A stretch of 62,591 nt of DNA, filler included. It is 13 parts of 13 records of this genome, joined end to end, with 100 filler letters (N's around TTAATTAATTAA, not from the genome) between each part and the next. Parts side by side here need not be neighbours in the genome. Positions count along the whole stretch, not along the records: positions 33,154 to 35,522 come from SRR9670534_1682; 12 more parts are not named here. One strand, 5' to 3'. The translations under genes were made by a program, and so were the position numbers. Position 1 is the stretch's first letter, and the number at the start of each line of letters is the position of its first letter. Shown piece after piece: positions 12,625-59,718 of the stretch. The notes beneath the pieces were generated by a model. That model saw nothing but the letters and a program-made list of their open reading frames with translations, did not search any database and was not told where the DNA came from.

Positions 12625-13398
12625 CTAAATTTAGCATTATTATTATTATTATTATTAATAATANNNNNNNNNNNNNNNNNNNNNNNNNNNNNNNNNNNNN
12701 NNNNNNNTTAATTAATTAANNNNNNNNNNNNNNNNNNNNNNNNNNNNNNNNNNNNNNNNNNNNTATAAATTATAAATTATAATTTATAATACATACATAT
12801 GTACTACATGTACGTATTAGGTATACATGTTTATGATACTGTAGTTAGGTTATGTCATTCATTAGGTGTACGCCATAACTATACGTAACCGAAATGCGGT
12901 TACCGCATTACATGCGAAGACTGTTACAGTCTGATTGTACCGAGTCGGTAACCAACATTATGTACTCGTACTATTGGTTCGGTACAGTCTTCGTCTTTGT
13001 ATTATTGGCAATAGTAGGTACAAAGACGTAGTACAAAGACGAAGACTATACCGAACTAGTAGTTTATTGCAGTCAGGTTTTGTTAGTTGTATAAATTATA
13101 ATAATGCTGGAGTAATATGCATAACGATGATACAGCTAGTAGCTACTAGTATAAATTGTACTGTACAATCATACGAATACATACCTACCTAATACATAAT
13201 TCGAATCGACGGCGTTGATACAATTTTTGCTAAATTACGTTTCTTTCCCATATATAAATCGAATTCACTGTGAATTATTCACACATGTAGCCTACGTAAT
13301 TTACAGTACTTACCTATATGTGTTCTCCGGTTAGCTCTATATTAATCAATAATCATAAGACCACTAGGTTTTCTCCTGTAGATCTATATTCGAATGTA

Positions 13399-15506
13399 AT
13401 GGTAATGAATAACACGGACAGAAGATTTCTCACTCAAAGTGACTGCTTACCAAAAATGTGCTATTTTTTGGCAAATAAGTTGAATCCTTTGTTGGGTTAC
13501 CTCAGAGCTCAGCAAGTTCTTCTCCAACCTGACATGAATAGATTTAAAAATTCAAAAGAGTCAATGTTCACATTGGTAACGAACTTATTTGACCTTATGA
13601 CGAAGCGCCAAAGAGCAAATGATGAGCCCGTCGTTGATAAATTAGCAAAATGTTTCGATCAAATGGGGCACAATCAGGTCGCAGGTTATGTTCGCAAAAG
13701 GGGCAAAAGTGAACTTGGTACACTTCTCAAATTTCCAGAAGTTTCTAAAGATGACAAAAGTCGACTGAATGAATGTTACGTTCAAGTTTCCAATTTAATA
13801 TTCGAAGATATTGATAGAAAATGTAAAAGTGAACTTCAACCAATTTTACCCGAATACAAACGAAAAGAAATTATTCAGCTTTCGGACAATGGTGAACGAA
13901 TGGACGCATTGATTGACGCTATTTTATTGTCCGATAATATCGATGCGGTAAATATCTTCGCAAATGCCTTGATTTTGGGATTTGGTGATGGGTCTATTAG
14001 AAATTGGTGTCCAAAGCTTTTTGAAGGAATACCATTGCATCATGGTGTACAAGAAAGTACACGAAATGTGGCGTCATCCCATCAACCAAGCGAGGACACA
14101 GATTCAGAACAGATTTTAAGGGACATAGAAGAACATTATGAACAAATGCTGCACTATCGAAATGATGCATGTCGTTTTGGAGAATTTCTCCTTTGTTTCT
14201 AAAAATAGTAACAAGCGAATTTCTCTTTAGGTACATGAAGATTATCCAGAAAAGTACATTCCATACGATCCTGTCAACAATACAATGGACGGAAGGCACG
14301 CGAAATATTACGGTCACGTCTTTATTATATGCAATATTAAGTATGGCGGTGAACATACAAGATTTGGGGGACAATTTGATCTGTCAAAATTAATTGTGGC
14401 TTTTCATCAAAGAAGATATTACGTTCATGCTCCTTATTGTGATTTTAGATCAAGACAGGTATCTTATTATGTATTGTTTATAATATTATTATAGTACTTC
14501 CTTTTATAGTGGGGTCCCTACCTCCGAGTTAAAAAAATTTACCCCCATCATGGCTATCAGCGCCATCTGTTTATCACCTATCTGATATCTCTCTTGTACT
14601 TTTCTGACTGATAAACAGATGGCGCTAACAATTTTGATGGCGCTAACAATTTTGATGGCGCCATCTACTTTGTAATAGCGCCATCTGTATGGTTGTTTCA
14701 AGCCTTATGATATTTTGTTATTATTAATTAGGCAGAAGCTTTTGAATACCGTATTGCATCAAATATAATTATAGGAAATGGATGCAATTTTGGCTGAAAT
14801 AAAACAAGTTGTTGACAATAATGACATGGGCTTATTTGTCCTTATAGTAATGGGGCATGGTGGTCACTCACTATATGACCAAAACATTGCTGACTCATGT
14901 CTTAAATTTGTAAGTACTGAGGAAGGAAATCCTGAGGAAGAACGTTCCATTTACCTTAGAGACATCTGCACTTATTTCAGTGATAGAGATTCCCCAAGAC
15001 TTAGGGGTGTTCCCAGGTGGTTTATTTGCAACATTTGCAGAAAACGTGAAACTCCTGCCATTGGAGATAATAATCGTGTATATCAAACTGATGTACAAGT
15101 TGATACACAGCCTTTCTATGAAAGAGCACCATCAGATCTGGAAAACAAGATTTTAGCTAATAGAAGAGATATGTTAATTTCATACTCTTGTGATGAAGGT
15201 TTTGATTGCTTCAGAAATGTTCATAATGGCTCCTTGTTCATTCAAAAAATTTGTCAAATTTTAATGAAACCTGAAAACAATCTTCTTCCAAGAATTTCTA
15301 TTACAGATGATATTTTGCTAAAGGTCATTTTTAATTTTTAAATAAATAAAAATTTTAATTTTGAAATTTTTTAGGTTAGTAGAGAGGTGCAGGAAGAACT
15401 TGCACGAGATGGGGACTTAACTGGACAATATTTGAGCCAAATTCCATGCTCTCTTAATCTTCTTGGAAAAAGGATATTTTTGCCTGAAGTCTCAATGACG
15501 TCATAA
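13399..15506 (+). CDS. Initiator-type caspase with two CARD-like prodomains; exons 13399-14166 (GC donor), 14231-14458, 14775-15323, 15375-15506
   Basis: N-terminus MVMNNTDRRFL resembles a caspase-9 CARD start. p20: GHVFIICNIKY..TRFGGQFD, IVMGHG (catalytic His), SPRLRGVPRWFICNICRK (catalytic Cys). p10: DMLISYSCDEGFDCFRNVHNGSLFIQKIC, KVSREV, QIPCSLNLLGKRIFL. Confidence 0.9.
14558..14687. repeat. Cluster of GATGGCGC/GCGCCATC motifs with an inverted repeat, in caspase intron 2
   Basis: AGCGCCATCTGTTTATCA (14559-14576) and TGATAAACAGATGGCGCT (14609-14626) form an inverted pair; two tandem AACAATTTTGATGGCGC units and a further TAGCGCCATCTG follow. Confidence 0.75.
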
Positions 15507-16769
15507 ACGCTAACATGTAATAATTATATTAAAATTTGTCTACCTTTATTTATAGACTCCCATTTTATAATTGCAATTGATATTGGTAAACTTTTTGGCG
15601 ACATCTATGTGTTCTCCACTTTAATCATATAGTCCTTTTATTGTATAGATTTTTTAGTTATGCTAGATTATTATTAATGTTCAATAATTGTTTATTAGAT
15701 TAATAATAAATAACAACAATTAAATTATTATTAATGTTTGCTGTCGTGGTGCAGTAATCCATATTCAAAANNNNNNNNNNNNNNNNNNNNNNNNNNNNNN
15801 NNNNNNNNNNNNNNTTAATTAATTAANNNNNNNNNNNNNNNNNNNNNNNNNNNNNNNNNNNNNNNNNNNNTGGCTCATTTCACGAATTGGTCGTAACAAT
15901 TATAAGCTAATACTGTCAGTCCATAACTTCACTATAAGTCTTATTATCAGTAAGCCTAGCATGCACTTAAATCCCTATTTCCATACAATGATAACTTACA
16001 TTATTGTTAGCAAGTTGCTATTATCATTAACTCTGATGTATAGGTAGATACTATTCTGTTACTGTTAAGTTTTCTATGGTAAAAAGTTTTTAAAAAACTG
16101 CTTTTATTATTATGAATAATAATAAACACTGAGAAACAGAATTAGCGGGAACACCCTTTTTCAATACATTTTCAACAACCATAGTTATAGGTACTAAGTT
16201 AGTACTACTAACTGAAAAAGGAAGCCTATAATATAGGCTCTATATCACAACTTTTCATATAGAACATAAAATAAAAACTAGCACGAAAGGTTGTAAAAAT
16301 TTTAATTTAATATAATTTTAAGTTTAAAAAATTCAACAAAATTTACAGTAAGAAAACAAAATAGCAACAGAAAATGGCGATTCTCTTCCCGCCAAGAGGT
16401 GTACCGGCTTATTGTGTTTATACTTGTAGATAATATACTAAATTAGTGTTACTAATATGACATTAAAATTATTGTCTTACAAACTTACAATTAGTATTTT
16501 GTGGTATATTACTTTCAATCTAGATGTGTTTTTATCATAAGTTTTATGCATGGTTTTGAATTTTTGTATCAAGTTCTAACTTATTCAAGAAAGATGTTAT
16601 AACGTGACGTTATAACGTCCTCGTTCAAGCTAGAAGTTGTATTACAACTTCTAACCTATTTTTTTAGGTCTGAACTTCAGACTCTGAATCAGATTATTAT
16701 TAAGTTCAGACTCTGAATCATTTATTATTACACTTACTAATCTCTTGATATCACATAGCATTTTTGATA

Positions 16770-18034
16770 ATGGAGCCATTTCCAGAGACCACAACACCTG
16801 TGCAAGAAATGACCATTCAGAGATATCTGTTTCAGAAATATTTGGCCATTTCAAATAAGGTGGCTTATTGGTTTAAGAGACCACATCTTCGCTGGCCAGG
16901 AGAAGTTCAAAACGAAAACAATAGAAATTGGTATACTACGGTATGGAGAAAGATTTGTCCCCACAGGGAAAGTTCATTGGTTCTGTCTACTAGAAGCGCA
17001 GATGGTAGTGAAATCAATTATGAGGAGCCCACAATTTTTCAAGACTTGCATAATATACAAGACCGCTTTGCAAACAACTTAGAAATTAGAACACTCAAGC
17101 AAAGATTTATAGGCGATAGTACTACTGCAACAACAATTGGATCTCGCACATTTCCTTCAAGCACGCGCGACCTACCAAACAACCTTGCAGATACACGTCT
17201 GCAGTTGTGCCACTTAATAGAGAGATTTCGGGAAAACTCGTTTTTTGCAGACGCATGGCATGGCTGTAGGAGAATATTTGCAAATATTTTGAATAGAATA
17301 GGTCGTAGGTGAGTATTACTCACTGAGTAATGCATACTTCATCCTAAAACAATTTGCAATGTAAATTTTACATTAGAAGTTTATGTAATCAGCGAACCCT
17401 TTTCAGGCACATTTGGTTAGATGTGCAAGGAGGTAGAACACCTGAATACAACCTAGCAAATGAAATAGGTCAGTCTAACTGAGTGAAATTACATATCATT
17501 ATATACAGAATCTGTACGGTACAGATACACATTGTTATAATAATATGATATCTGTAAAGTAGACACTTATTTCGTAGAAATACCTGTGATTTAGATAGTC
17601 CTATGCTGACATTGGATTTTGATTGTCATGCAATGTCTGCCAAAAGAATGTTTAGAGACCCCAATAAACCGATATTTGACAATGATCGTACAAAAAGCGA
17701 AACTATAGCACACCTAATTTACACAATTAGAGAATTATCCCAAAATGAAAGCAGCCAAAGAATTATGATGTTTGATGAAATTTGTCGAACACTTGATGGA
17801 CAACCAACTGAATATGAAGAAAATATTATAACCGCAAATACTGTGGTCAACCCGCGAAATCGATTACGTTTTCAAAACTTATTGTTCCATGATCCCCTTG
17901 ATCCCCTTCAATTTGAAGCGAGTGCAATACCTAATGAATGCAATATAAATTCCTTCTTAAAGGCATTGTTTCAGGCTTGCGATATAGCACTACATTACGC
18001 ACAAATCACCTCGGGATCAGAGTGGCCATTGTGA
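16770..18034 (+). CDS. Uncharacterised 3-exon protein (16770-17308, 17407-17468, 17595-18034), about 346 aa
   Basis: Two ORFs from the track are joined in frame through a 62-nt exon (RHIWLDVQGGRTPEYNLANEID) with canonical GTGAGT/GTCAGT donors. No family recognised. Confidence 0.7.
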
Positions 18035-18692: not shown

Positions 18693-20475
18693 ATGGAAAG
18701 CAATGAAATAACCAAAACCGCTACGGTATCGCTAAACGACAAGCTGTGGTTGGGTTACAATCTTGAAAGTATTATTGATGCGGTTACGTCCTATGGACTA
18801 AATAATTTCATAAACCAACTACTAGCAGCTGAAGACACTGGTGATGATCGTGATGTCATTTGTGCTTGTAAAGATATTATAATTGAAATTCGAGAAATCT
18901 ATGGGTCAGTTGGATTTGGATATCTTCTGAAGACAGTTATTTTGTCATCTAAAACATTGGCTTGTTTATTAAATATCAGACCATCAACTGAAGCAACTAT
19001 CCTGAAGATACATTCAGAAATACCTGAGAAAATTGAGAAGTGGCAGCAAGCTTTGATACTTGCAAAGATAGATGTTCTAGTTTCTTATCCAACACTATTC
19101 GATGAGCTGTCAGACCTGCTTTCGACTTTAGAAATTGAAAATTTTCACACAATCGCAAAAGTTCCAGTTGAGTGGAAGCGAACGTTAAGATTCCTTGATA
19201 CACTTGTTGAAACAAATAGCAAATCTATTTTTGATGAATTTATTAACATTTTGAAGAATATTGGAGCATCAAACTTTGCTAGGTAATTTGACAATACAGT
19301 ATAAATTATAGGAATACGACTAATTGTAAACGTTTTTGTTGCATAGATTGCTAGAACAGTGTTCACAGACTGCAATTGACACCTTTACCACTGAAAATGT
19401 AAATATTACTTCTTCCCAAATTATTGGAATGGGTGGTGAAGCAATAATTTATCGGTTAAATTTGCAAAATTATGGTGACGCTGTCTTTCGAAAAGTAGAT
19501 CCTTTACCTAGAGCTTGGTCCAATGTGTTAGATAAAAAAGATGAATCTATAGTTCTGAAAGAAATAAGAAAATATGAACTCCTGCTCTTAAAATTTAGCT
19601 TACATCCTAACTGTGTTGCCATTTATGGAAATGTGATAGAACCAGGTCATTATGGTATTGTTATGGAATATTTGGAAAAAGGCAACTTGAAGGACTACCT
19701 ATGCATGTTGAATATAAAATCTGAGCAAAGTATATCTGTTAAACAAAAGCTGAAATGGTGCTTTCAAATTGCCTCTGCTTTAAAATTTTTGCATGGATAT
19801 GAACCAATAGTAGTTCATGGTGATATAAAATGCAGTAACTGCCTATTAGCAGATCCAGGTTTAACAGTGAAACTATCCGATTTCAATGGAAGCCAATTTC
19901 ATAACATGACACTTAGCAACTTAGGTTCAGAAAGAAAAAAGTTTACACCAACACATTGTCCTCCAGAAGTGCTAAGAGGTAGCAAATATGAATTCGCAGC
20001 TGATGTGTATTCTTTTGGAATTTCTACAGTTGAAATGTTTTTTCCTGAAGACATAGAACCTCACAAGAGTAAATTTCCACTGGTGTTAGATTTGATCAGT
20101 ACTGAAATTCGGTCCAATGATGTTGATCCAATTGAAAGTATGATCAATGAGTTACCACAAGCAAGACCAAGCACTACGTTAACTTACAAGACTTTTAAGA
20201 AACTTCTGTTACTGTGTGAACAACCTATGAAGGATTTGTCAAACTCAAAAAAGATAAGTATGCTGCTAATTTTGGTACATATAAATATTATAGGTTTAAC
20301 TTATTATTAATAAAGTATGGCTATCTTAATAAAATAAAGATTATACTGCATAATTTATACATGGTGTAAAAAATAATTAAAACAATAATACAATACTTTT
20401 AGAAAAGGACACTATACTTGAATTTCCCTTTCAAGCGAAAATCGGCGTGGATATCGTAAATCTAATGTTGCAAGC
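18693..20475 (+). CDS. Tandem death-fold (CARD-like) plus TKL/RIPK-like protein kinase; exons 18693-19282, 19347-20257, 20403-contig end (partial)
   Basis: CARD-like KWQQALILAK...LRFLDTLVETNSKSIFDEFINILKNIGASNFARLL. Kinase motifs IGMGGEAIIY, HPNCVAIYG, YGIVMEYLEKGNL, HGDIKCSNCLL, KLSDFNGS, THCPPE, ADVYSFG. Confidence 0.85.
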
Positions 20476-20575: not shown

Positions 20576-23077
20576 TCTTTGTTTAGTTTTAGTCATAAGA
20601 TAGAATAGTGGTAAATGATAAACCATCTTGCCTAAGACATAGGTTTCAAGATATGCCTTTATGCCACCACGAGTAGAAATGCCTTTTAGACGTTTAATCC
20701 TAACAAAGGCCATACCCATAATTCTTTTATATCTATTGTAAGTAAAATCAAAGTCCATTTTGCTATCTATATGATAGCCCAAGTATTTAATTTCATTTTT
20801 GACCCATAGATCTTTATTATTAACTTTAATTGGGTAGGGGGCATGATTATGCCTATTGTGGTAGACCACCATTAACTCAGTTTTATCCAAATTAATGTGA
20901 AGACCATTGGAATGAAAGTACCTACCTAAAATCAATGATTCTAACTCAACCCATTTTTGTAACGTACCCATATTAGTCATTCCAAAACTAACAATTAAAT
21001 CATCTGCATAAAACGTATATCTAGGACATTGACATTCAGCCAACGTACCCCACATTTTACATTGATCACATTTAAACCTAGTTTCTTCTATATCAGAAAT
21101 AGCCAAAGAAAACAGAATAGGACCAAGTACTGAGCCTTGAGGCACCCCAGTGGTCATATTAGCTGAGAGATCACCAAATTGGTTACTATTAAATGATCGT
21201 GATGTCATATAATTATCTAGTAATCTCCTAGTTGCCGTAAAGCCTAGTGACTGAGATATTTTATCTCTTAAGATTCTATGATCAATGGAGTTGAAAGCTT
21301 GTGTTAAGTCTATAGCCAAGAGAGCTGTATTCATTTTCCTTTGTTTGTTAGATGAAATGTGGCTTAGAACATTTAACAGGGCATCTCTCGTACCCAATTT
21401 GTTTCTAAATCCAAATTGGTTATTAGGTAAAATACCTCTTGCTATTAGAGTGTATTTCAACCGTTCCTCCATCATATATTCAAGTATCAAATTAAAGCAT
21501 CTAGACAATGCAATAGGTCTATAGTGCTTAGGTAAATAGGGATCTTTAACCTTGTTTATATATGTCAAATATGTACACTTCCAACCTTTTGGCCAATAGC
21601 CATTGTCCAGTATATCATTATAGAGTGCAAGAAGACTATTACGGTTATCATTATCAAGAGAGTCAATAACCTTCCTTTTTACATCTACTAAGGGACCTGC
21701 TGCTTTCTTATTGAGTTTTAAGATGGCATTATCAAGTTCATCTCTGGTAAAACCCATATTAAGCATATTTCTGTTTTTAACACTTAGTGATTTTTTACCT
21801 TTAAGATGATTATAGAAGCGTTTATGAGAAGTCTCAATCTCATCAGATGTTATTGGATTTAGTTTATCTAGGTTATTACCAATGTCCGCGTTAAATTCCA
21901 TAAGGCATTTATGTGCCTCTTTGTTATGGACAATGTTACCATTATTATTAACTGCTATATCCAATTTATCCTTGTCCTCACATTTCTCATCACCTGTAAT
22001 GTGTTTTACAATTTGATGCCATTTCTTAGGCTTATTTAATCTATAATCTTCCATGTTAGACATAGCATCCTTTTTTTCTAGTAACTTAAATTTATTTCTG
22101 TTGTACCTGGCACGAGGTAGCAAATTGTCCTCCAGTTTCTTAGCAGTGTTGGAGAGACGATCACAAATGTCATCAATATTTTTATCATCCTTTTCAATAC
22201 ATCTTGTATAGTCAAAGAGATACCTTAACTCTTTGTTAAATTCATCAGTTTGGAATTTATCCCACTGGGGGAATTCAATGTAATTGTTACCATTATTATT
22301 ATGTATATTGAGAATTTCTGCAATAACAGGGTAATGATCACTAATATATTCTTCAAATATAGTACCTTTAATTTCCAAATGCTTGGCAAAAACATAATCT
22401 ACCTGATTACCAGTTATCCCAGAGACACCACCAGTTTTCCTGGTTTCATTAGATGGCCTAGTTATACCATATAGGTCATCAGAGTATTCATGAGTGACAC
22501 TCATTAACTCAGCAAACTGCTTATCAGGGTTGTTTTTTAGGTCAAAATCTGGTCTTTTAATATTAAAGTCACCAATAACAATTTGTTTGCCAGAAATCCC
22601 ATTATCCGAGTTTGCTAAGAAAGCATATAAGTCCTGAAAATTGTCATAACCTGGAGATCTGTAAAGTGCACATAACCTAAAGTGATCTTTTTTAACCTTT
22701 AAATCCAACTGTAGGCCTTCAAATTTGAAGCCAATAGTTTCCTTGGTGTCCAAAATTTTTATATGTTTTTTAACATATATTAGTATACCTCCAGATTTAT
22801 TATTAGTTTGTCTATTAATAAATCTTAACTGATAACCCAAGTGTTTGGGTGGAGTTACATCATTAATACACCAAGATTCAGTAATAACCATTATATCCGG
22901 TTGTATTTTATAGATTATGTCATACACAAATATGGATTTCTTATCAATAGAACCCATATTCATATAAAGAACCACCAGAGATTTATTATTTGTTTTAGAA
23001 AATTGTTCCAAATTAAGCCATTCAAATTCCAAGGTACTGTCATTATCCGACAGACTATTAATTGATGTGTCAGAAAC
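20576..23077 (-). mobile_element. Non-LTR retrotransposon (LINE, Jockey/CR1-group-like) ORF2: APE endonuclease plus reverse transcriptase, open across the whole contig
   Basis: APE motifs YMNM, ITESW, SGGILIYV, ALYRSP, GDFN, VDYVF, SDHYPV. RT motifs HYRPIAL, NQFGFR, IDLTQAFNSIDH, GVPQGSVLGP, FYADD, KYLG. No stop codons. Confidence 0.95.
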
Positions 23078-23563: not shown

Positions 23564-26500
23564 GAAATATCTGACCAAATTTATTCCACAATGAAAAAAG
23601 CTGATGAATTGGGTACTAAGGGTGATACACATGGGCAAAAAGCTGAAATAATTAATGAATTGTACAAGGTTAATAACAGATTTCAAGCCAGAGTTAATGA
23701 GTATAAAACTTTGCTGAATATGTCAGTTAGATTCTTCAAGAGCCTAGATCAGGTACCTTATAATTGTTGTTATTTAATAATATAAATGGCACATGACTAT
23801 TGTATTTTAATAAAAACTTTAACTTGAAATTTTCAAGTAACCAATACAAACTTTTAGTTGGATAATATTATTCAAACTACGCAAAAAACTTATTCTGAGC
23901 ATTGCTGTCCTAAAGACCTTTTATTGGCAGAGAAAGAGTTAAGTGATCATAATAAAGAGAAAGAAAAAATCCAAGATTTCTTTGGCAGAACTTTTAATGA
24001 AGGGGAGGAAATTGTTATGCGTGTTAGACAGCAAAGTTCTGAAGCCTTAGCAAGGCAAGATGTCGCAAATATAATAAATCTGGCCGAACAGAGAAAGGCT
24101 AGTTTTGATAGAACATGGGAATCGCAAAAGAAAAGGCTTGTAGACAATATCAAATATTGCCAATTTGTAGATTTGTTGGGTGAAGTGTACAAAGACATAG
24201 ATAACTTTATGAACGTTGTTCATCAACAGAAGAAGGCTACAGTTTCTGGAACAGCATTTACGCAGCTTAAAACTCATATTGATATCGTTGACAAAAAAAT
24301 TGAAAACGTTATTGAGGTGGCAAATTCATTGATAGCAGATGACCATGGCAACAAAGACCAAATTGAAAAGGACAAAGATGATCTTAATAAGAAACGCTCA
24401 CTTTTCCATACAACAGTTAATGAATACGGAACATCTGTGGATAAAGGAGGGATTTACGAAGCGCTTGTTAATGAAGTTCAAGTGTGGAATGAGCAAATGA
24501 ACCAGATTATGGTAAATGTTGACAACGAAAGTAATAAGTTGAAAGAGCCTCAAGGTCTTCAAAAATTAATTGACGTAGTTGATACAGCAATTAATAGTGG
24601 AAAGGATAAACCTGAACAGCTTAAGCAAATTTCAGAACATGCTGTGGAGATTTATGGACCAAACGCCCAAAATCAAATTCAGCCTCTTGTTTATCAAACG
24701 CAGGAGACATTTCAAAACATTAACAATCTTAAGGCTTCCTTGGTGGCAATTCAAGCTGAAGTGGCAAATAAACCTCCTCTTGAAGAAGTTATCAAGTTGC
24801 AAGAAATTGATACCATTATTGAAAAGAAAGAAACCGATGAAAAAATGATGCAACCTATAAAAGCAGATGATCAAGAAATACCTATTATGAAGGTTATAAT
24901 TGGTGACGAAGAATCAGCACCAAGTCAAACTGCTCGGCCAAGTATTGAAGAAATAATAAACAGTGCTCCTGAATCTATTTCAGTATTTGAAGAAGTTGGT
25001 TATCCAGTATTGGTACAACCTAAAAAAGGAGGACCGGTGATGTTGCATCCAGACATGCCTGCAGAAGGAGAAGTAGTAACTTTTGAAGAAGTTGAAGTTA
25101 CAGAATCAGTAAAAGGGATTTTTGACATTCAAACTGAACCTTTATCAGAGCCTTCAGCAGTACCTTCGACTGTTCCTGAAAAAATTCCTCAATCCTTGTC
25201 TGAAGCCATGGCTCCATCTGCGGCTATAGTTCCATTAGCTCCTCCCCTTTCATACCCTGAAATGCCTTTGTCTGCTGAAGGAGAAGATGTAGTTTATGAA
25301 GATGTTGAAGTTTCAGAAACAGTAGATGGGACATTTGATGTTCAAACTGTGCCGTCAAATGTCTCTGTGTCTCAAGAACCTCAGCAGATCACTCCGATTG
25401 CTGGTGCAGAAGGAGAAGTTGTAACTTTTGAGGAAGTTGAAGTTACAGAAACAGTAGATGGACAATTCGACGTTCAAACTGTGCCTTCAACAATGCAGTT
25501 ACCTTCAACTACCGCTGTGACAACTCCTCAACCTGCTACTCAAGCACCTCAAGAAGTATCTGCAGTTACTGCACCACATCCAGTAGCTCCGCCTATCTTT
25601 GTTAAGGAATTAAAAAGTGCTCAAGTTCTTGAAGGCAACAAGTAAGTATTGAAGTTCATTATAAAGAATTTTATTATATAGCCCTACTGTATATTTTTGA
25701 CATTATTATTCTATTTGTAGGCATAGATTTGTTTGTCAACTTGAACCACACGTTCAAGCTCAAGTCACTTGGTATAAGGATGGAATTCTAATCGTTAATC
25801 CTGATTACATCGTTAATGTTGAAAATGGTGTTTGTACTCTGATTATAGAGGAAACTTTTAGCGAGGATACTGCAAAGTTTTCATGTCGTGCAACAAATGA
25901 ATTAGGTACAGCAGAAACGTCTGCTTTTCTAAAGGTTATAGAATCTGAACGACCACAGCTTATATCACCAGATTTTATCAAAACATTGGAAAGTAAAGAA
26001 GTTTTGGAAGGTCAAAAAGTAACATTTGAATGTGAAGTACTGGGCTTTCCAAAACCAGAAATATCATGGTTTAAAAATAGCACACAATTAATGGACTGTC
26101 AAGAATTTTCTATCACAGAAGCTGAAAACAGATGTTTGTTAACCATCAATCCGACTAAGAAACAACCGCATGAAGGACGGTATACTTGTAAAGCTGTTAA
26201 CAGAATGGGAGAAGCCAATTCTTCTGCAGTTTTGGCAGTCAGGAGTATGGGAAAAATTCTTAATAACAATATAATATAGTAATACTAGAATTAAAATACG
26301 TTAATATAATTGTATGAATAGCTTTGTATGAATTTTATTAATAATAAAGAAGATACTAGAGCGCTAGATTTAATAACAGATAGTCTATAATAATTATATG
26401 AACATTTGTTATAGAACAACCATTAGCCAGACAGCCTGAAAAACCAAAAATAATCGAAGGATTGAAACCAAATTATCAGGCATTAGTAGGCAAACCTATT

Positions 26501-28193
26501 CGAATGAACTGCAGATATGAAGGCTATCCAGAAGTGGAAATTGTTTGGTCAAAGGATGATCTTCCTTTGAAAAGTACACCAGATTTGCGAATTGTGATTG
26601 AATTAGGTAATACAGCGGTTGAAATTAAGAAAGCAAATCCTGAACAAGCAGGAACCTATGCGGTAACAATCAAAAATGATCAAGGACAAGTTTCACAACG
26701 TTCAGAGTTAATAATAAATGTTCCGAAAAAGGGTACTCCAGACGTGGAGACGTTTAAACCAAAGTTAACTTCACCATTGAAAGATACTAGAATCACTCAA
26801 GGTCATAGAGCAGAATTCGATTGCACAATTATCGGACAACCAGAACCAGAAGTCATATGGTATCATAATGATAATCCCGTAAAAGAGTCCGAAAATTGCA
26901 AATTACTTTTTCAAAATGATTCTTGTCAAATGGTTATTCACAAGGCTTCTCAGACTGATGCTGGGCGATACAAGATTAGGGCTGTGAATGCTCTTGGGGA
27001 ATGTGCTAGTCAAGCAAATCTTTATGTGGAAGGTTAGTAGGTCTATAATAACAAAGGAAACAGATGTCGCTAGCATTTACGCGAAAACTCTTTTTGTAAT
27101 TTAGTTGAACCAATGCAATTCAAGCTACCACCAATTACAAAGCATGAAGCTAAGTCTGGAAGCCCACCTAGATTTATTCAAGTAATTCATGACTATGTCG
27201 GAAGTGAGGGTTATCCTCTGAGGATGGCATGTAGAGTTGTTGGAAATCCTCCACCACAAGTAAAATGGTTTAAGGATGATTCTGAAATAAAGAACTCTTC
27301 AGACTTTCAAGTACAATTATTTATAATACCTACTTATTATTAAACAAACAATTCTTATATTATTAATATAACAACTGTTTCAGATGAGTAAGCATCACGA
27401 TACCCATACTATGGCAATTTCTGAACCTTTTCCTGAAGACTCTGGTAATTATACAGTGAAGGCATTTAACCCTATTGGTGAAGCAAAATCATATGCAAAG
27501 GTTATTATAAAGCCTAAGGGTAGGTTAATAAAATAATTCTAAAGAAAGACGTGATTATTAATAATCTATTTGTTACATTTTTATTTTAGAACAAGTCGCT
27601 ACTAAAATTATCACCAGATCTGACGTAGTTCACTCTCCTCCTGAATTTAAGCTTCTTTTTCATGATTTATACGTTAAGCCAGGAGAACCAGCTTTGCTTG
27701 AATGTATTGTGACAGGAATACCAAAGCCACGTGTACATTGGACTAAAGACAACGGTCCTATTACTAGTCCAGAAATAAAAGTTAAGATGGAAGGTGACAA
27801 GCATACACTGTTGATACCTGAGTCATTTGAAGAGGATGCAGGCAGATACTCCATACACGCTGAAAACATGTCAGGCAGAGCAACAAATTCTGCTGTTTTG
27901 TATGTTGGTGATCAATATGAGGGCGGGCAGAAAACTCCTGACGAATATTTAAAGCTCCCTACTGCACAAGCAAGGCCAGATTTTAGTACGTCATTAGTGA
28001 GGCAAGTTCACCAAGAGCCTCTTCGTAGTCCCATAACATCTGAAAAAATATTTTCTCCCACAAAAATGCTTACCCACGAAGGACCCCATTTCAAGCCAGT
28101 TCAATTTAATGTAGAAAAACCTGTCCCACCCAAGTTTATTCAGCCCTTGCATTCAGTTATTGCAGCTGAAGGTCAAAGGGTTGTTTTAGAAGC
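23564..28193 (+). CDS. Invertebrate titin-family muscle protein (zormin/sallimus-like), multi-exon fragment: spectrin-like repeats, Pro/Glu/Val-rich linker, multiple I-set Ig domains
   Basis: Helical spectrin-like repeats at 23564-24780, a PEVK-like linker, then Ig domains such as NPDYIVNVENGVCTLIIEETFSEDTAKFSCRATN, ECEVLGFPKPEISWFK, DCTIIGQPEPEVIWYH, ACRVVGNPPPQVKWFK, ECIVTGIPKPRVHW. Truncated at both ends. Confidence 0.88.
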
Positions 28194-28470
28194 NNNNNNN
28201 NNNNNNNNNNNNNNNNNNNNNNNNNNNNNNNNNNNNNTTAATTAATTAANNNNNNNNNNNNNNNNNNNNNNNNNNNNNNNNNNNNNNNNNNNNTTAAATT
28301 TCAATTTGAATTTTAAAATTTTGCTAAATTTCAATTTAAAAATTATGTTGAAGTTGGTTTCAGAATCATAATTTGCTTGATTTAAAAGTTTTGTAATTTC
28401 AATAGTTGCAACGTCGTAGGAGTAACAAACCTTATGTATCATTGCTTCATGGTTATGATAATTTTAATAG

Positions 28471-33026: not shown

Positions 33027-34066
33027 TCAGTCATCTATTTTTAAGACTTTGTTNNNNNNNNNNNNNNNNNNNNNNNNNNNNNNNNNNNNNNNNNNNNTTA
33101 ATTAATTAANNNNNNNNNNNNNNNNNNNNNNNNNNNNNNNNNNNNNNNNNNNNATCTCCTGGTGCTAAGATGGCCCATGGCATGAAGATGGCATGAAGCA
33201 TTAAGAAACTTATGAAGCAACTGGATTATTATTCCCAAACATTAAAACTATATGTTAATGTGATATCTTACGTAACATATTTTATGATCCATGCATAGAT
33301 ATTACACTACCAAGATACATGATGTATTACATCTGACAGCATGCTAGTTATTAATAATAAATAGTAACAACAAAAAATGGATGCAGCAAACAGTATATCC
33401 ATTTTTTGTTTTTGTAGATCAGCATCATTTATTTAATAATTACAGTAGATACATTTTGTCAACTTGGGCAAGGTTAATAAGGCTTTTAGTTTCATCATTA
33501 TAAGACTTTAGCTTGTAATGTAATATCAAGCTATATAGTTCAACATATGTTCTTACTCATCAACGAAGTTATAATAGAGTACATTTTTTGTTTTTGGCAT
33601 TTAAAATGTTAGCATTAAAATTTAAATTTTAAGTCTTAGCATTTAAATTTTAAAGTAGCCTAAATATAACTATAGATAATCATGGTCATTATATGCATTT
33701 ACAATAAAACATTAACAATGTTCTTTTGTGTTTACATTGTTCTGTTATATGATAACTTATATCATATAGATATTACAATGTTCTTCTGTCTTTACATTGT
33801 TCTGTTATATCATGATAATATTACTTATATCTAACATAACAACTATCATAATTGAATTATATCAACCTGGTTACTGGGGCAATATAACAGCTAGCATACT
33901 AAATATTATTATTATTAATAGAAAAACTACAATCTTTTAATGTCAATTTTTTGTTTTTTGGTTAATTGGTTCACATTTAATAAATTAAAGTAGGTAGAAA
34001 ATGCATTATGATTTTATCTGTTTTATATGTAAGTGCCATTTTTATAAATTTGGTGAGGATATAGAC

Positions 34067-34137
34067 TAGATGCATAATTTGAGAACAATTGGGTACTTGA
34101 AATTCAAGTACTCAATTGTCCTCAAATTATCCATCCA
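34067..34137. repeat. 71-nt near-perfect palindrome (35-bp arms, 4 mismatches, 1-nt loop)
   Basis: TAGATGCATAATTTGAGAACAATTGGGTACTTGAA-A-TTCAAGTACTCAATTGTCCTCAAATTATCCATCCA. Confidence 0.85.
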
Positions 34138-34604
34138 ACGCTGTTGCTATTATTCTTACCACCTGGGGTAATGATTTAGAGGAAGCAATCACTTATAATG
34201 GTTATGAGTATATTCTACATGCTATGTGGTAGTATATACTACAGAGTATTGTAGTATAATACTATTGTATCGATCTTCCGTGATTAGTAGAATGGAATTG
34301 GTAGCGCTGCTACCTTCATTAGTTTATTCATTCATAACGACAGCTTTGTTTTCAAAATAATATAAGTTACTTGCCCGATCAATGTATATGTATGTACAAT
34401 ATAGTGTATCGATTTTTTAACATTACATAGTATTTGATAAGATTGGGCTGCTGCTGCAGCGGTGGTTCATTCATTATTAACAATATTAATAATGTATTGT
34501 TTTACTTTTAAAGCAATACTTTACCTTGCTTGGGTTTCCTTTATAACATTGAAGAGAAACCATATTATTGACATATATCCCATATTTTGTTAACTTAGTG
34601 TTTT

Positions 34605-35522
34605 ATGGCTTCTATTACCATTTGGAAATTAGCTCTTCAGAAGAGCAGAGATGCTATTTTAAACAACATAAAATCTGACACAAAGTTCTTCCTAGAAAAG
34701 CTTACCACAGCGAAGGTTTTGAGTGTTTCACAGGCACTTGACATTGAACGAAAGGGAGAAACTGCATTGGATAAAGCAACTAAGATATTCGATATTTTGA
34801 CGGCCAAGAGCAAAAGAGATTACTTGGCATTTCTGGAAGTGTTAAGGGAAAATGGGAGACATCATTTGGTGATGGAGCTGAACATTCACATGGAACAAAT
34901 TTCCATTGGAATTGGAGGGAAGCACTTGGATACGCTACATAAAATGGAGTTGATCGTACTCAGACAATTTCCTAATTTCTACTCTGAATTCAAGAAAAAC
35001 TTCAAAGCGAGAGAACTTTTACCTCAAGACAATTTTAAGATAATTGATGAATGCTATGGTGAACATGATAAAAATGTCATGTTTTTTAGAATACTTTCTG
35101 AGGTTTCCACTGAGCTATCTTTTAAGGAGTTTATAAAGTGTGTCCGAGAATTTGATGTGGATAAAAAGTATCAATGTTTGACGGATGAAATCTACCTGGC
35201 TGAATTTCAGCATGATATCAAGGGTGTTTGTGTTACCCCAAAGAGCATCCTCAATCATGAAGAATGTTGGCAACTTATCGGATGTGGCACTTTCGCAAAT
35301 GTTTACAAAGTCATAGCTTATGGCTTTGGATGTTGTGCTTTTAAAAAGTTCAAAAGACTTTCAGAAACGTTTGATGAGAACCTGATGTGCAAACCAATCT
35401 TTGAAAAGGAAATAAAGAAGCAGATTGAAATATCTTCAAGAATAAGCCATCCAAATTGCATCCAAGTGTTTGCCTTCGTCAGCGATACAAGCTGCTATGG
35501 TATTTTGCAAGAACTCTGCTCT
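34605..35522 (+). CDS. CARD-CARD-kinase (5' part; kinase truncated by contig end)
   Basis: Clear CARD (WKLALQKSRDAIL...FLEKLTTAKVLS...DKATKIFDILTAKSKRDYLAFLEVLRENGRHHLVMEL), a second CARD-like helix bundle, then a kinase N-lobe IGCGTFANVYK...CAFKK...SHPNCIQVFA...YGILQELC. Confidence 0.88.
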
Positions 35523-39200: not shown

Positions 39201-41056
39201 AATAATGCCTATATAACAGCCTTTAAAAAAGCGTCAGCATTCACGAAACATTTTCTAAATGTTTATCAAAATTGCCCTATAAGTAAAGATTTATAGATAA
39301 AACTATCAATGATTGTGAAGGTAATGATGAAGTTATCTATCCTTCTCAGGCAGAAATACTCAGATACATTCAGCAGATAGATGTCAGTAGCACTGTCAGC
39401 ATTGATAGAGTTAGTGGCAAACTAAACAAAATATTGCGATATAAATTAGCACTGGTAATACAATCTTTCTATATTAATATATGCAAGTCAGGTGTCTTTC
39501 CAAAAATTTGGAAACTAGAGGTGATACATCCGATCCCTAAGGGGGGTATTGCCTAGGACATTAATAACTATCATCCTATTACTCTCCTTCCTGTCATTAG
39601 CAAGCTTGTGGAGAAAATATTCCTGCACAGGTTAGAATTGTTAGCATCTGTAGATACAATAATATACCAATATGGTTTTAGAGAATTTTTGTTAACTAGG
39701 ATTGCCCTATTTAACTTCCAGCACACATTGGTGGCAAAACTGGAAGAGCAAAGAACAGTTGTAGTCTGCATATATCTAGACTACAAGAAAGCTTTTGATA
39801 TAGTAAAGCATCAATCCATCTTGAAAAGGGTACAACAATTGGGGCTTAAAAAGCATATGATATCAGCTTTGGCATCTTATCTTTCAAAAAGAATAAGTGA
39901 GGTGATGGTAGATGGAAAGTATGATGAATTTGGGAAATGCAACAGTGGGGTGGGCCAAGGTCTACCCCTGAGTCCGAAATTGTTCAATTTAACAACATAT
40001 CCCATTTTAATAATAGTGTCCAAAGAAATAATATATCTATATGCTGATGACAGCAAACTAATCTATAGTTTTTCCAAAGAAATGAGAATTGATGAAATTG
40101 GTAGGCTAATAATCATTAAGCTAGATTTAATAGCTGACAAGGCCAAAGAAGTAGGCCTGGTATTAAACCTGCATAAGTGTGCAAAAGTCACATATCGAGG
40201 GGACAAAAATATGCCCATTTATATTAAAGGGGAATTGGTAGAGGAAAAACCTCTACAAAGAGATCTGGGAATCCACTATTCTCCTACTTTACACTTCAGT
40301 GAATAAATCAATATGTCAATAAAAAAAGCTAATGCATCATACTTTGGTGTGATGCATTTGATAATGGATGAAATTGATTCATTGGAAAATGCAAACATAT
40401 ATAAACAATATGCACAATCACTAATAACATTCGGAAGTGAAATTATGCCAATCACTAAAACTGACATGCAAAAATTGGTCAGTTTCAAAAAAGAAATTGT
40501 TATGCATATTTTGAGTCATTTTGTTGAATATATCAATTGTTGTCTTCACTTCAATATGTTACCAATACCATTGGAAATATTGAAGTGAAGAATATTATTG
40601 TTACATGATATTGTAAACAACAACATTAACAGTTTAATTAAACATCTGAACAGTATAATTGTAGATGGGAACTGTCTGAAGATTACTGAAGATTTCTGCT
40701 CAACATCAAGAGCCAGGTCAAGCACCCTACAGGATACCATTAGGACAGTGAACAATTTGCCCAACTCAATAGGATTTGAAATGAGCCTGTTGTTCTGATA
40801 CCCATTAGATGAGTACATGGAGACTTATGTCAAGGAATATTTTAAGCTGTTAGATACCTGTACTTGGAAATTGTGCTGTAATTGCCCACAATATTTAATG
40901 AAAAGACTCAAGCCTCTAGAAATACTGCTTATGAAAAAGTCTCAAAGCCTGAAGAACTCAGCTGAACTTGTAAATCAAGAAGAAATGGAAGAAGAGATTT
41001 TCCAAAGATCTGAATCACTGTTGCAGTTATCTCAAGATTTATTGTTATTGTTATAA
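36298..41056 (+). mobile_element. Decayed near-full-length LINE: ORF1-like coiled-coil and Arg/Ser-rich basic region, then disrupted APE-RT ORF2
   Basis: APE remnants (YGDIN, LLDNIA, LDHG) and RT remnants (IYLDYKKAFDIVKH, SGVGQGLPLSPKLF, YLYADDSKL, RDLGI) are split by stops and frameshifts. Boundaries are approximate. Confidence 0.85.
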
Positions 41057-58201: not shown

Positions 58202-59718
58202 CTAGAGATTTCCACTTTTGTACATCCAAAAGATGTCTCTTAAGGTGATACTTGAATAAATCAACTGAAACTTCATCAGGGAAAATCCCATTATCAAGAT
58301 GGTTTCACTGATCAGTACACCTATGTATAATGAACTTTCTATATTTAGTATCCTTGCCTGCAGGTGCTTGTAGCTGATACTTGTGGTTCCTCTTGGGATT
58401 AACTTTCTCAAAAAATAATTTCATAATTTCAGAATATTTTTCAACCATAACAATGTTATATAAAAATACTAACGAATAATAATTAAGAGTATTTTCTACT
58501 GATAACATATTGATATCACATAAGCATTGTTCATAGGAGATGTAGGGCTTATTTTTAATGCCAATTAATGAGTTTATCTATTTGTAATCCTAAATTCTTT
58601 TGTGATTCAACCCTCAAAAGTTCTTGCCCATTCATATAAACCTTACCATCAAAGTCAGGTCTAGTGAAATAGGTAATATAATGGCATTTCTTGATTGAGA
58701 AAGACATTTGCCAATCTTCAGCCCACTTAACTAAATCTTCATATCATTAGCATATTTAGATACATTCACATGTAAAAATACCTCATCAACACTATTAATA
58801 AGCATGTTGAAAAGAAGGGTCCCCAGGACATTACCCTGGGGTACCCTACTTGTAATTGATCTAAAGTCGCTGAAACATTCATTCACCCTTACACACTGTC
58901 TCCTAGAATTTAAAAAATTTTTAACAAAAGATCCAATACATCCCTCAAAACTGCAATGTGGTAACAATACAGCCAGTGCTTGATGACTCATGCAATTGAA
59001 CACTTTGCTAAAATCAGTATATACGGTATGTACTGGGATGTTAGAATTATGAAATTTTAAAATATAATGCAAATACTCAGTAAGATTAGAGACACAACTT
59101 TTGTTTTTCATAAAGCCGTGTTGGCTATTATGAAGGAAATTCCTGCTTATCTAGTGCATTTCCATGCGATGTCACACCAGAGCCTTAATGATCTTGCTTG
59201 CTGAACTTGTCAGTGATACCAGGCGATAATTAGTAGGTAGCGATCTATCTCCTTTTTTGAAAATGGATGTTATTATACTATCATGCCACTTAAATACAAA
59301 CATCCCCTTACTAACTAACAAATTACTAAAATTCAAAAAAGTATTTTTAAAATTTATACCCCCTTTAATAAATATTTTAACAGGAATTAAATCTAAACCA
59401 GGCACTGCATTACTATTAGATTCATTCAAAATCATTTTAAGATTATCCATGATAAAATCCGAGTGTGTATACATTTCATCAATGCACAGGGTCTGTAGAA
59501 ATTCCTTGTCAACAGGTTTCCTATATACACTAAGAAAGAAATCATTCAAAATTTTGGCCTTATCGCTGTCATTAGAATGCAAAACACCATTACTATCCCG
59601 TAGATCAGATAATCTTTCCAGGGATTTCCTTCTGGCATTAACCTTATTACAAAAATTATTAGAGTCTTTAGCAATATCCTTAGCAAAAAGTAATTCTGCT
59701 GCAAAATTATCAAGTTAA
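58202..59718 (-). mobile_element. Decayed LINE (CR1-like) reverse transcriptase fragment
   Basis: KAKILNDFFLSVY, PGLDLIP, IFKKGDRSLPTNYRLVSLTS, VYTDFSKVFN, VPQGNVLGTLLF and YANDMK (mutated YADD), broken by stops and frameshifts. Confidence 0.88.

Follow-up and report, generated by a model that had tools for sequence, protein, structure and literature searches.

What does an open reading frame encode that begins inside a short contig and is still open at the contig's last base? An earlier sequence-only reading had seen in it a fusion of a CARD, a second CARD-like domain and a kinase N-lobe, and had grouped it with a second kinase gene and a caspase gene into one candidate lineage-specific signalling pathway. 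In animals, innate immunity and cell death rely on core relays that join a death-fold domain to a kinase (IRAKs, Pelle, RIPK1, RIPK2). The window, that is the whole stretch of DNA analysed here, comprises 62,591 bases with a G+C content of ~30%. It is made up of 13 contigs, a number given before and borne out by the spacers of the form N44-TTAATTAATTAA-N44 that stand between them in the sequence. The contig in question occupies positions 33154-35522 (2,369 bases, record SRR9670534_1682). We consider it reasonably probable that the frame, termed P0001, is the beginning (306 codons) of a genuine protein-coding gene from an AT-rich invertebrate, and that its product carries two CARD-type death-fold domains followed by a TKL-like kinase. 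The features discussed below are collected in Table 1.

Table 1. Features of the P0001 gene, its paralog and the caspase gene. Positions count along the whole window.
Feature	Position	Strand	Basis
Pyrimidine-rich stretch ending in AG	34581..34598	+	Read from sequence
P0001 ORF, probable 5' gene part, ends with the contig	34605..35522	+	306 codons; shuffle control
CARD 1, residues ~5-97	34617..34895	+	Pfam CARD match; predicted fold
Second death-fold domain, residues ~104-205	34914..35219	+	CARD-like by predicted structure
Protein kinase N-lobe, residues 221-306, ends at hinge	35265..35522	+	Pfam Pkinase; alignments
Paralog exon 1, helical N-terminal region; second half homologous to P0001 domain 2	18693..19282	+	Sequence comparison
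Paralog intron, 64 nt, GT-AG	19283-19346	+	Splice sites
Paralog exon 2, complete TKL-type kinase domain, HGD/DFN/PPE	19347..20257	+	Pfam; solved relatives
Paralog possible second intron, 145 nt	20258-20402	+	Splice sites by eye
Paralog putative exon 3, 24 codons, open to contig end	20403..20475	+	Splice sites by eye
Caspase gene: prodomain with weak CARD match, caspase domain in at least 2 further exons	13399..15341	+	Pfam

The open frame and the domains of P0001

The ATG at 34605 is preceded by an in-frame TAG (34596-34598), the start context is intact, and from this ATG the frame runs open up to the contig's final base. The longest frame on the contig had 308 codons and the next longest 81. 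As a control, the contig was shuffled 1000 times. The longest frame obtained in this way had 150 codons, and none of the 1000 shuffles reached 308. Shuffling with the composition of the ORF itself (1000 times) gave a longest frame of 170 codons, and again 0/1000 reached 308. Thus, the frame is well above chance length. The G+C content was 36.8% in the ORF and 27.9% in the 1.45 kb upstream of it, a region without any frame longer than 60 codons. The AG that closes the pyrimidine-rich stretch lies six bases 5' of the ATG and is part of the in-frame TAG; judged from the letters, the stretch is a possible splice or trans-splice acceptor. Further upstream, a ~36-base AT-rich motif was seen by eye in two copies 60 bases apart (33716-33811). 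Tandem Repeats Finder did not report these copies; its sole result was an 11-base duplicate at 33177-33198, unrelated to them. The gene is incomplete, since its C-terminus, along with the catalytic loop and the DFG motif, lies beyond the contig end, and this counts against our preferred reading.

Next, the N-terminal domain was compared with known CARDs. Pfam CARD (PF00619) matched residues 10-93 over profile positions 3-83 of 85 (E 1.1e-6), with a score of 29.0 bits at a cut-off of 23.9 bits. An AlphaFold2 model of residues 1-215, built from a three-sequence alignment, had a mean pLDDT of 73, with values of 80-88 over residues 11-90. The predicted domain 1 is a six-helix death fold that lies nearest to solved CARDs. 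In the fold search CARDs ranked above DD chains, which appeared only at rank 26 or lower. A home-made profile of nine CARDs, taken from the CARD repeats of the database proteins P0005 and P0006 described below, was matched by domain 1 with an hhalign probability of 96.8%.

For the second domain, residues ~101-215 gave no match to Pfam CARD or CARD_2 at E up to 10. The region was modelled alone, with the equivalent region of the paralog as the sole other row of the input. The resulting model had six helices, a mean pLDDT of 84 and a pTM of 0.79, and the five models ranged from 81 to 84. Again, the predicted structure is a six-helix death fold nearest to solved CARDs. The best Foldseek rows were CARDs (Apaf-1, TM 0.68/0.75), albeit with a best E of 0.15 and 0/172 rows at E 0.001. 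In another fold search, DD chains were found only at rank 41 or lower, below the CARDs. When the domain 2 alignment of the two paralogs was compared with the nine-CARD profile, hhalign gave a probability of 31% and an E of 5e-4 over 87 in-register columns, while the single sequence reached a probability of 6%. The kinase piece, which served as control, gave an E of 0.36 against the same profile. With another HMM, domain 2 scored 9.8 bits, but domain 1 was among the seeds and only six sequences were scanned. As there is no Pfam match, the profile match is weak and the support comes mainly from predicted structure, we do not call domain 2 a Pfam-level CARD. It is CARD-like, a death-fold domain that is most like CARDs in its predicted structure. 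How the two CARDs are oriented to each other was predicted without confidence (pTM 0.45; across both domains the rmsd to duck RIG-I was 13.5).

The kinase N-lobe was recognised by Pfam, by solved kinases and by the paralog. Pfam Pkinase (PF00069) matched residues 223-305 over profile positions 5-80 of 263 (E 5e-4). The score of 20 bits remains under the cut-off of 31.7 bits because P0001 holds only a third of a kinase domain. In an 11-sequence alignment, consisting of P0001, the paralog, a 105-residue kinase fragment and eight TKL kinases, the glycine loop (G226-C-G228-T-F-A231) is present and Lys247 stands in the lysine column of beta-3 (VAVK). An HPNC motif occupies residues 282-285. Taken together, the open frame, the Pfam matches and the predicted structure confirm the fusion of CARD, CARD-like domain and kinase in one uninterrupted frame. 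The alpha-C glutamate column holds Gln273, both in the TKL alignment and in the HMMER alignment to PLK4, with Glu275 two residues on. As two independent alignments place Gln273 in this column, the P0001 kinase may be inactive, a further point against our preferred reading.

A diverged paralog and the question of kinase activity

The gene at 18693-20475 had been read as a highly diverged relative, and the comparison identifies it as a true paralog with the same domain order. Residues 118-303 of P0001 and 128-304 of the paralog were joined in one colinear alignment (24.9% identity over 189 residues, E 3e-11). Because the paralog is colinear through domain 2, linker and N-lobe, a chimeric contig is argued against. 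Compared as separate pieces, the two proteins gave an E of 3e-4, and one of 1e-8 for the N-lobe (32% identity). The motifs HPNC and YGI, which had been noted as common to both, indeed fall at aligned positions. The W-x2-AL motif, offered as a common CARD start, opens domain 1 in P0001 (W7) and domain 2 in the paralog (W116). This match carries no weight because it falls in non-equivalent domains. When six death-fold-like pieces were compared pairwise, only the second domains of P0001 and the paralog were detectably similar (E 3.7e-5). The pairwise comparison of the two first domains revealed no detectable similarity, which counts against our preferred reading, and the first domain of the paralog had no Pfam match.

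The spliced model of the paralog has 524 codons and no stop, and only 24 codons follow the kinase. The 64-nt intron splits its helical front from the kinase, and at the equivalent point the P0001 gene is uninterrupted. The contig of the paralog also has two frames of 187 and 158 codons that lie upstream of it on its strand (16749-18034). Neither had a Pfam match, and the two might represent a neighbouring gene that lacks annotation.

The paralog kinase keeps the catalytic Asp, the Asn and the Asp of the DFx motif. Other positions are off consensus, with HGD for HRD (non-RD), DFN for DFG and PPE for APE. In the beta-3 lysine column (the position of the VAIK lysine) an Arg is found, followed by Lys. 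Its best solved relatives were ZAK/MLT (6e-20), CTR1 (1e-19), a JAK-type kinase and IRAK1 (5.8e-17), followed by WNK, SOBIR1, ITK and TAK1. No RIPK was present among the best 60 of 269 solved relatives. In a search of longer database proteins, 16 of the 2,412 candidates matched the paralog kinase at E of 1e-10 or better. These 16 were generic TKL kinases with 25-34% identity, and none of them had CARD, Death or MATH domains. By its sequence, we class the paralog kinase as generic TKL type and not as RIPK2-like. The "RIP" in the proposed RIPoptosome was thus not borne out, as neither the solved relatives nor the domain order, which is the reverse of that of RIPK2, point to this family. In our preferred reading, the P0001 gene and the gene at 18693-20475 belong to a small, fast-evolving, lineage-specific family.

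Relatives were also sought outside the window. A HMMER search of P0001 against 1.84 billion protein representatives gave three proteins up to an E of 0.001, two of them through domain 1. The architecture of two CARD-type domains plus kinase occurred in none of the three. The closest CARD sequence was P0005 (E 1.5e-11), an unnamed protein of 842 amino acids in which Pfam CARD matches six stretches. It was followed by P0006 (XP_013400484.1), an uncharacterised protein of 267 residues from the brachiopod Lingula anatina (E 4.6e-5), which has two tandem CARDs like P0001. Unlike P0001, both P0005 and P0006 are CARD-only proteins without a kinase, and their significant match is limited to CARD 1. 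Word-indexed homolog searches with P0001, at near and at longer lengths, gave no match at E 0.01 or 0.001, and a scan of metagenome contigs gave 116 pattern matches, of which 0 were confirmed. In the ESM Atlas, whole P0001 found only short kinase-fragment clusters (0.90-0.92), and residues 1-215 found no usable match among the named clusters. No ortholog of P0001 in any other organism was detected in the representatives, the homolog searches or the metagenome searches, and this, too, counts against our preferred reading.

Based on these data, the main rival is a scaffold or pseudokinase role, because of the Gln273 substitution and the odd motifs of the paralog. The kinase-like domain would be catalytically dead, and the protein would act as a CARD scaffold or decoy that tunes a CARD signalling hub without substrate phosphorylation. 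IRAK3/IRAK-M, Tube and CARD-only proteins act as such scaffolds or decoys. Besides Gln273, the Arg-Lys pair in the beta-3 lysine column and the HGD, DFN and PPE motifs of the paralog fit this explanation, and so does the very fast evolution of the family, whose paralogs are 25-32% identical. Against it, Lys247 and the glycine loop are intact in P0001, and the paralog keeps the catalytic Asp, the Asn and the metal-binding Asp. Moreover, Glu275 could serve in place of Gln273 if the register of the helix differs, and the P0001 sequence stops before the C-lobe. We regard a dead kinase as unlikely, albeit as the alternative that deserves most attention.

The caspase gene and the other genes of the window

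The caspase gene lies on a contig of its own (12764-15770), separate from both kinase contigs. Its caspase domain matched Peptidase_C14 (E 9.7e-16), and the start of the large subunit is found in a separate exon (frame 14231-14494). In the part at 14775-15341 the His region reads GHGGH; the histidine is kept in unusual surroundings. In the same part, NICRK stands where we would expect QACxG, which we take to be the active-site pentapeptide, and the cysteine is kept. A tandem CARD had been ascribed to this protein as well. The first CARD remained below the Pfam cut-off (20.7 bits, E 4.3e-4, cut-off 23.9), and the putative second CARD gave an hhalign E of 0.028 against the nine-CARD profile, so that the tandem CARD of the caspase is putative. 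By BLASTP, the caspase prodomain showed no detectable similarity to the kinase CARDs. When the six death-fold-like pieces were compared by net charge and pI, no usable hint for a pairing emerged.

A NACHT or NB-ARC sensor, which the sequence-only reading had named as something to look for, was sought within the window. There are 58 frames of 90 or more codons, of which 42 were scanned as other ORFs. The 16 frames left out were 5 death-fold, kinase and caspase frames that had already been scanned and 11 that overlap longer frames. A NACHT, NB-ARC, TIR, Death, CARD or kinase domain was found in 0/42 of these ORFs at E 0.001. Many of the ORFs belong to typical animal genes, such as PRMT7, a GDI/REP-like protein, titin-like I-set Ig domains and an LRR membrane protein. 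Further ORFs encode an OCRE/G-patch protein, cofilin, an activin-receptor-like domain, a Srw-type GPCR and LINE reverse transcriptases. One frame of 834 codons (20576-23077, minus strand) fills its whole contig and is open at both ends; it contains an endonuclease and a reverse transcriptase of a LINE-type retroelement. More reverse transcriptase fragments were observed at 39557-40303 and 58734-59150. At 23858-28194 lies a titin/obscurin-like gene that starts with a spectrin-like region and is cut by the contig end. It has a low-complexity stretch of repeated "EGE(V/D)V..E(E/D)VEV(T/S)E" units, followed by at least 5 I-set Ig domains in separate long exons.

These data also bear on the proposal that the two kinases and the tandem-CARD caspase form one RIPoptosome- or inflammasome-like pathway, in which the CARDs of kinases and caspase would bind each other. 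Three death-fold genes in 62 kb of unlinked contigs, and a caspase in which the His and Cys regions of the fold are retained, would be in line with such a pathway. CARD caspases are recruited by CARD-CARD pairing, according to the excerpted text of PMC11874512. The missing similarity between kinase CARDs and caspase prodomain, the score of the first caspase CARD below the cut-off, the merely putative second one, the lack of a sensor domain in the 42 other ORFs scanned and the location of the three genes on different contigs argue against it, and we consider a single pathway improbable. It is equally doubtful that P0001 is a decaying or cut gene copy (pseudogene or assembly fragment) without own function, since its end at a contig border in a fragmented, retroelement-rich assembly and the departure from the kinase consensus at Gln273 are outweighed by 306 stop-free codons in DNA of 31% G+C, the higher G+C of the ORF relative to its flank, confident folding of both CARD models and an intact start context.

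Possible mechanism and comparison with known systems

We return to the reading of P0001 as the first part of a genuine tandem-CARD kinase gene. By analogy with known death-fold assemblies, we infer that a protein of the architecture found here would oligomerise with a partner, be catalytically active and play a part in immunity or cell death. The tandem CARD would recruit the protein into a helical CARD oligomer, or would itself nucleate one. A sensor or adaptor that carries a CARD and acts upstream could nucleate such an oligomer. With the attached kinase domains crowded together, signalling might then be switched on, or the kinases might simply be concentrated. Precedents for these steps would be IRAK4/IRAK2 in the Myddosome and RIPK2 on NOD1/2. 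A bolder idea is that of a private signalling hub of this fast-evolving invertebrate, built from kinases that begin with a RIG-I-like tandem CARD and of which some end with a TRAF-type MATH domain. Receptor docking, nucleation of a CARD filament and IRAK-like kinase signalling would then be united in one chain, which could stand in for the usual multi-protein relays (MyD88-IRAK-TRAF6 or NOD-RIPK2) and perhaps pass its signal straight to a CARD caspase. We give this idea little credence, if somewhat more than the single pathway with the caspase.

Provided that its members are expressed and active, the family would represent another way in which animals rewire CARD signalling, by domain shuffling, and it would offer a compact model of proximity-driven kinase activation. 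It is one more shuffled death-fold architecture in a group of genomes known for such shuffling (amphioxus, in the excerpts of PMC2575513). We consider the finding interesting rather than startling, because death-fold shuffling is already known from this source: widespread shuffling of DD, DED and CARD domains is reported there for amphioxus, and the excerpted text describes no CARD-kinase. In the open-access full text searched, with subscription literature and supplements outside the search, no description of an N-terminal tandem-CARD kinase was found. The papers found there for a CARD-kinase fusion matched "CARD-containing kinase" only, and none of them contained "CARD-CARD-kinase". Going by titles and abstract openings, they deal with NOD/NLR and inflammasome signalling, and there RIPK2 would be meant.

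Among known systems, IRAK/Pelle and the two proteins described here are alike in placing a TKL-type kinase behind an N-terminal death-fold domain. The solved kinases that match the paralog kinase best include IRAK1 (E 5.8e-17), and the non-RD motif (HGD) of the paralog is a further likeness to IRAK/Pelle. The assemblies of IRAK, Pelle, tandem-DED proteins and the RIG-I tandem CARD are summarised in the excerpted parts of PMC11874512, and a logic of activation through recruitment into a helical death-fold oligomer would likely be common to IRAK/Pelle and P0001. In contrast to the one death-fold domain of IRAK/Pelle, P0001 has two, and both rank with CARDs and not with DDs, so that the N-terminal DD-subfamily death domain of IRAK/Pelle is not found in P0001. 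Sequence orthology to IRAK/Pelle is likewise not seen, as the closest kinases are generic TKLs with 29-34% identity.

RIPK2 resembles P0001 in having a kinase and a CARD in one chain. The arrangement differs, since in RIPK2 the kinase precedes one CARD at the C-terminus (PMC9573974, excerpted text), whereas the tandem CARD of P0001 comes first. Among the RIPK homologs surveyed in that source, as far as its excerpts go, a CARD is present only in vertebrate RIPK2. As to a closer relation, RIPKs are missing among the best 60 of 269 solved relatives of the paralog kinase, and the P0001 kinase fragment is too short to place.

Finally, RIG-I/MDA5 and NOD2 share with P0001 the N-terminal CARD pair, and the CARDs of MDA5 and RIG-I were among the top structural matches for the predicted structures of both P0001 domains. 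The effector part behind this pair is a helicase or a NACHT-LRR region in those proteins and a kinase in P0001. In summary, the finding is a real, lineage-specific variant of the theme of death fold plus kinase that is known from IRAK/Pelle and RIPK2.
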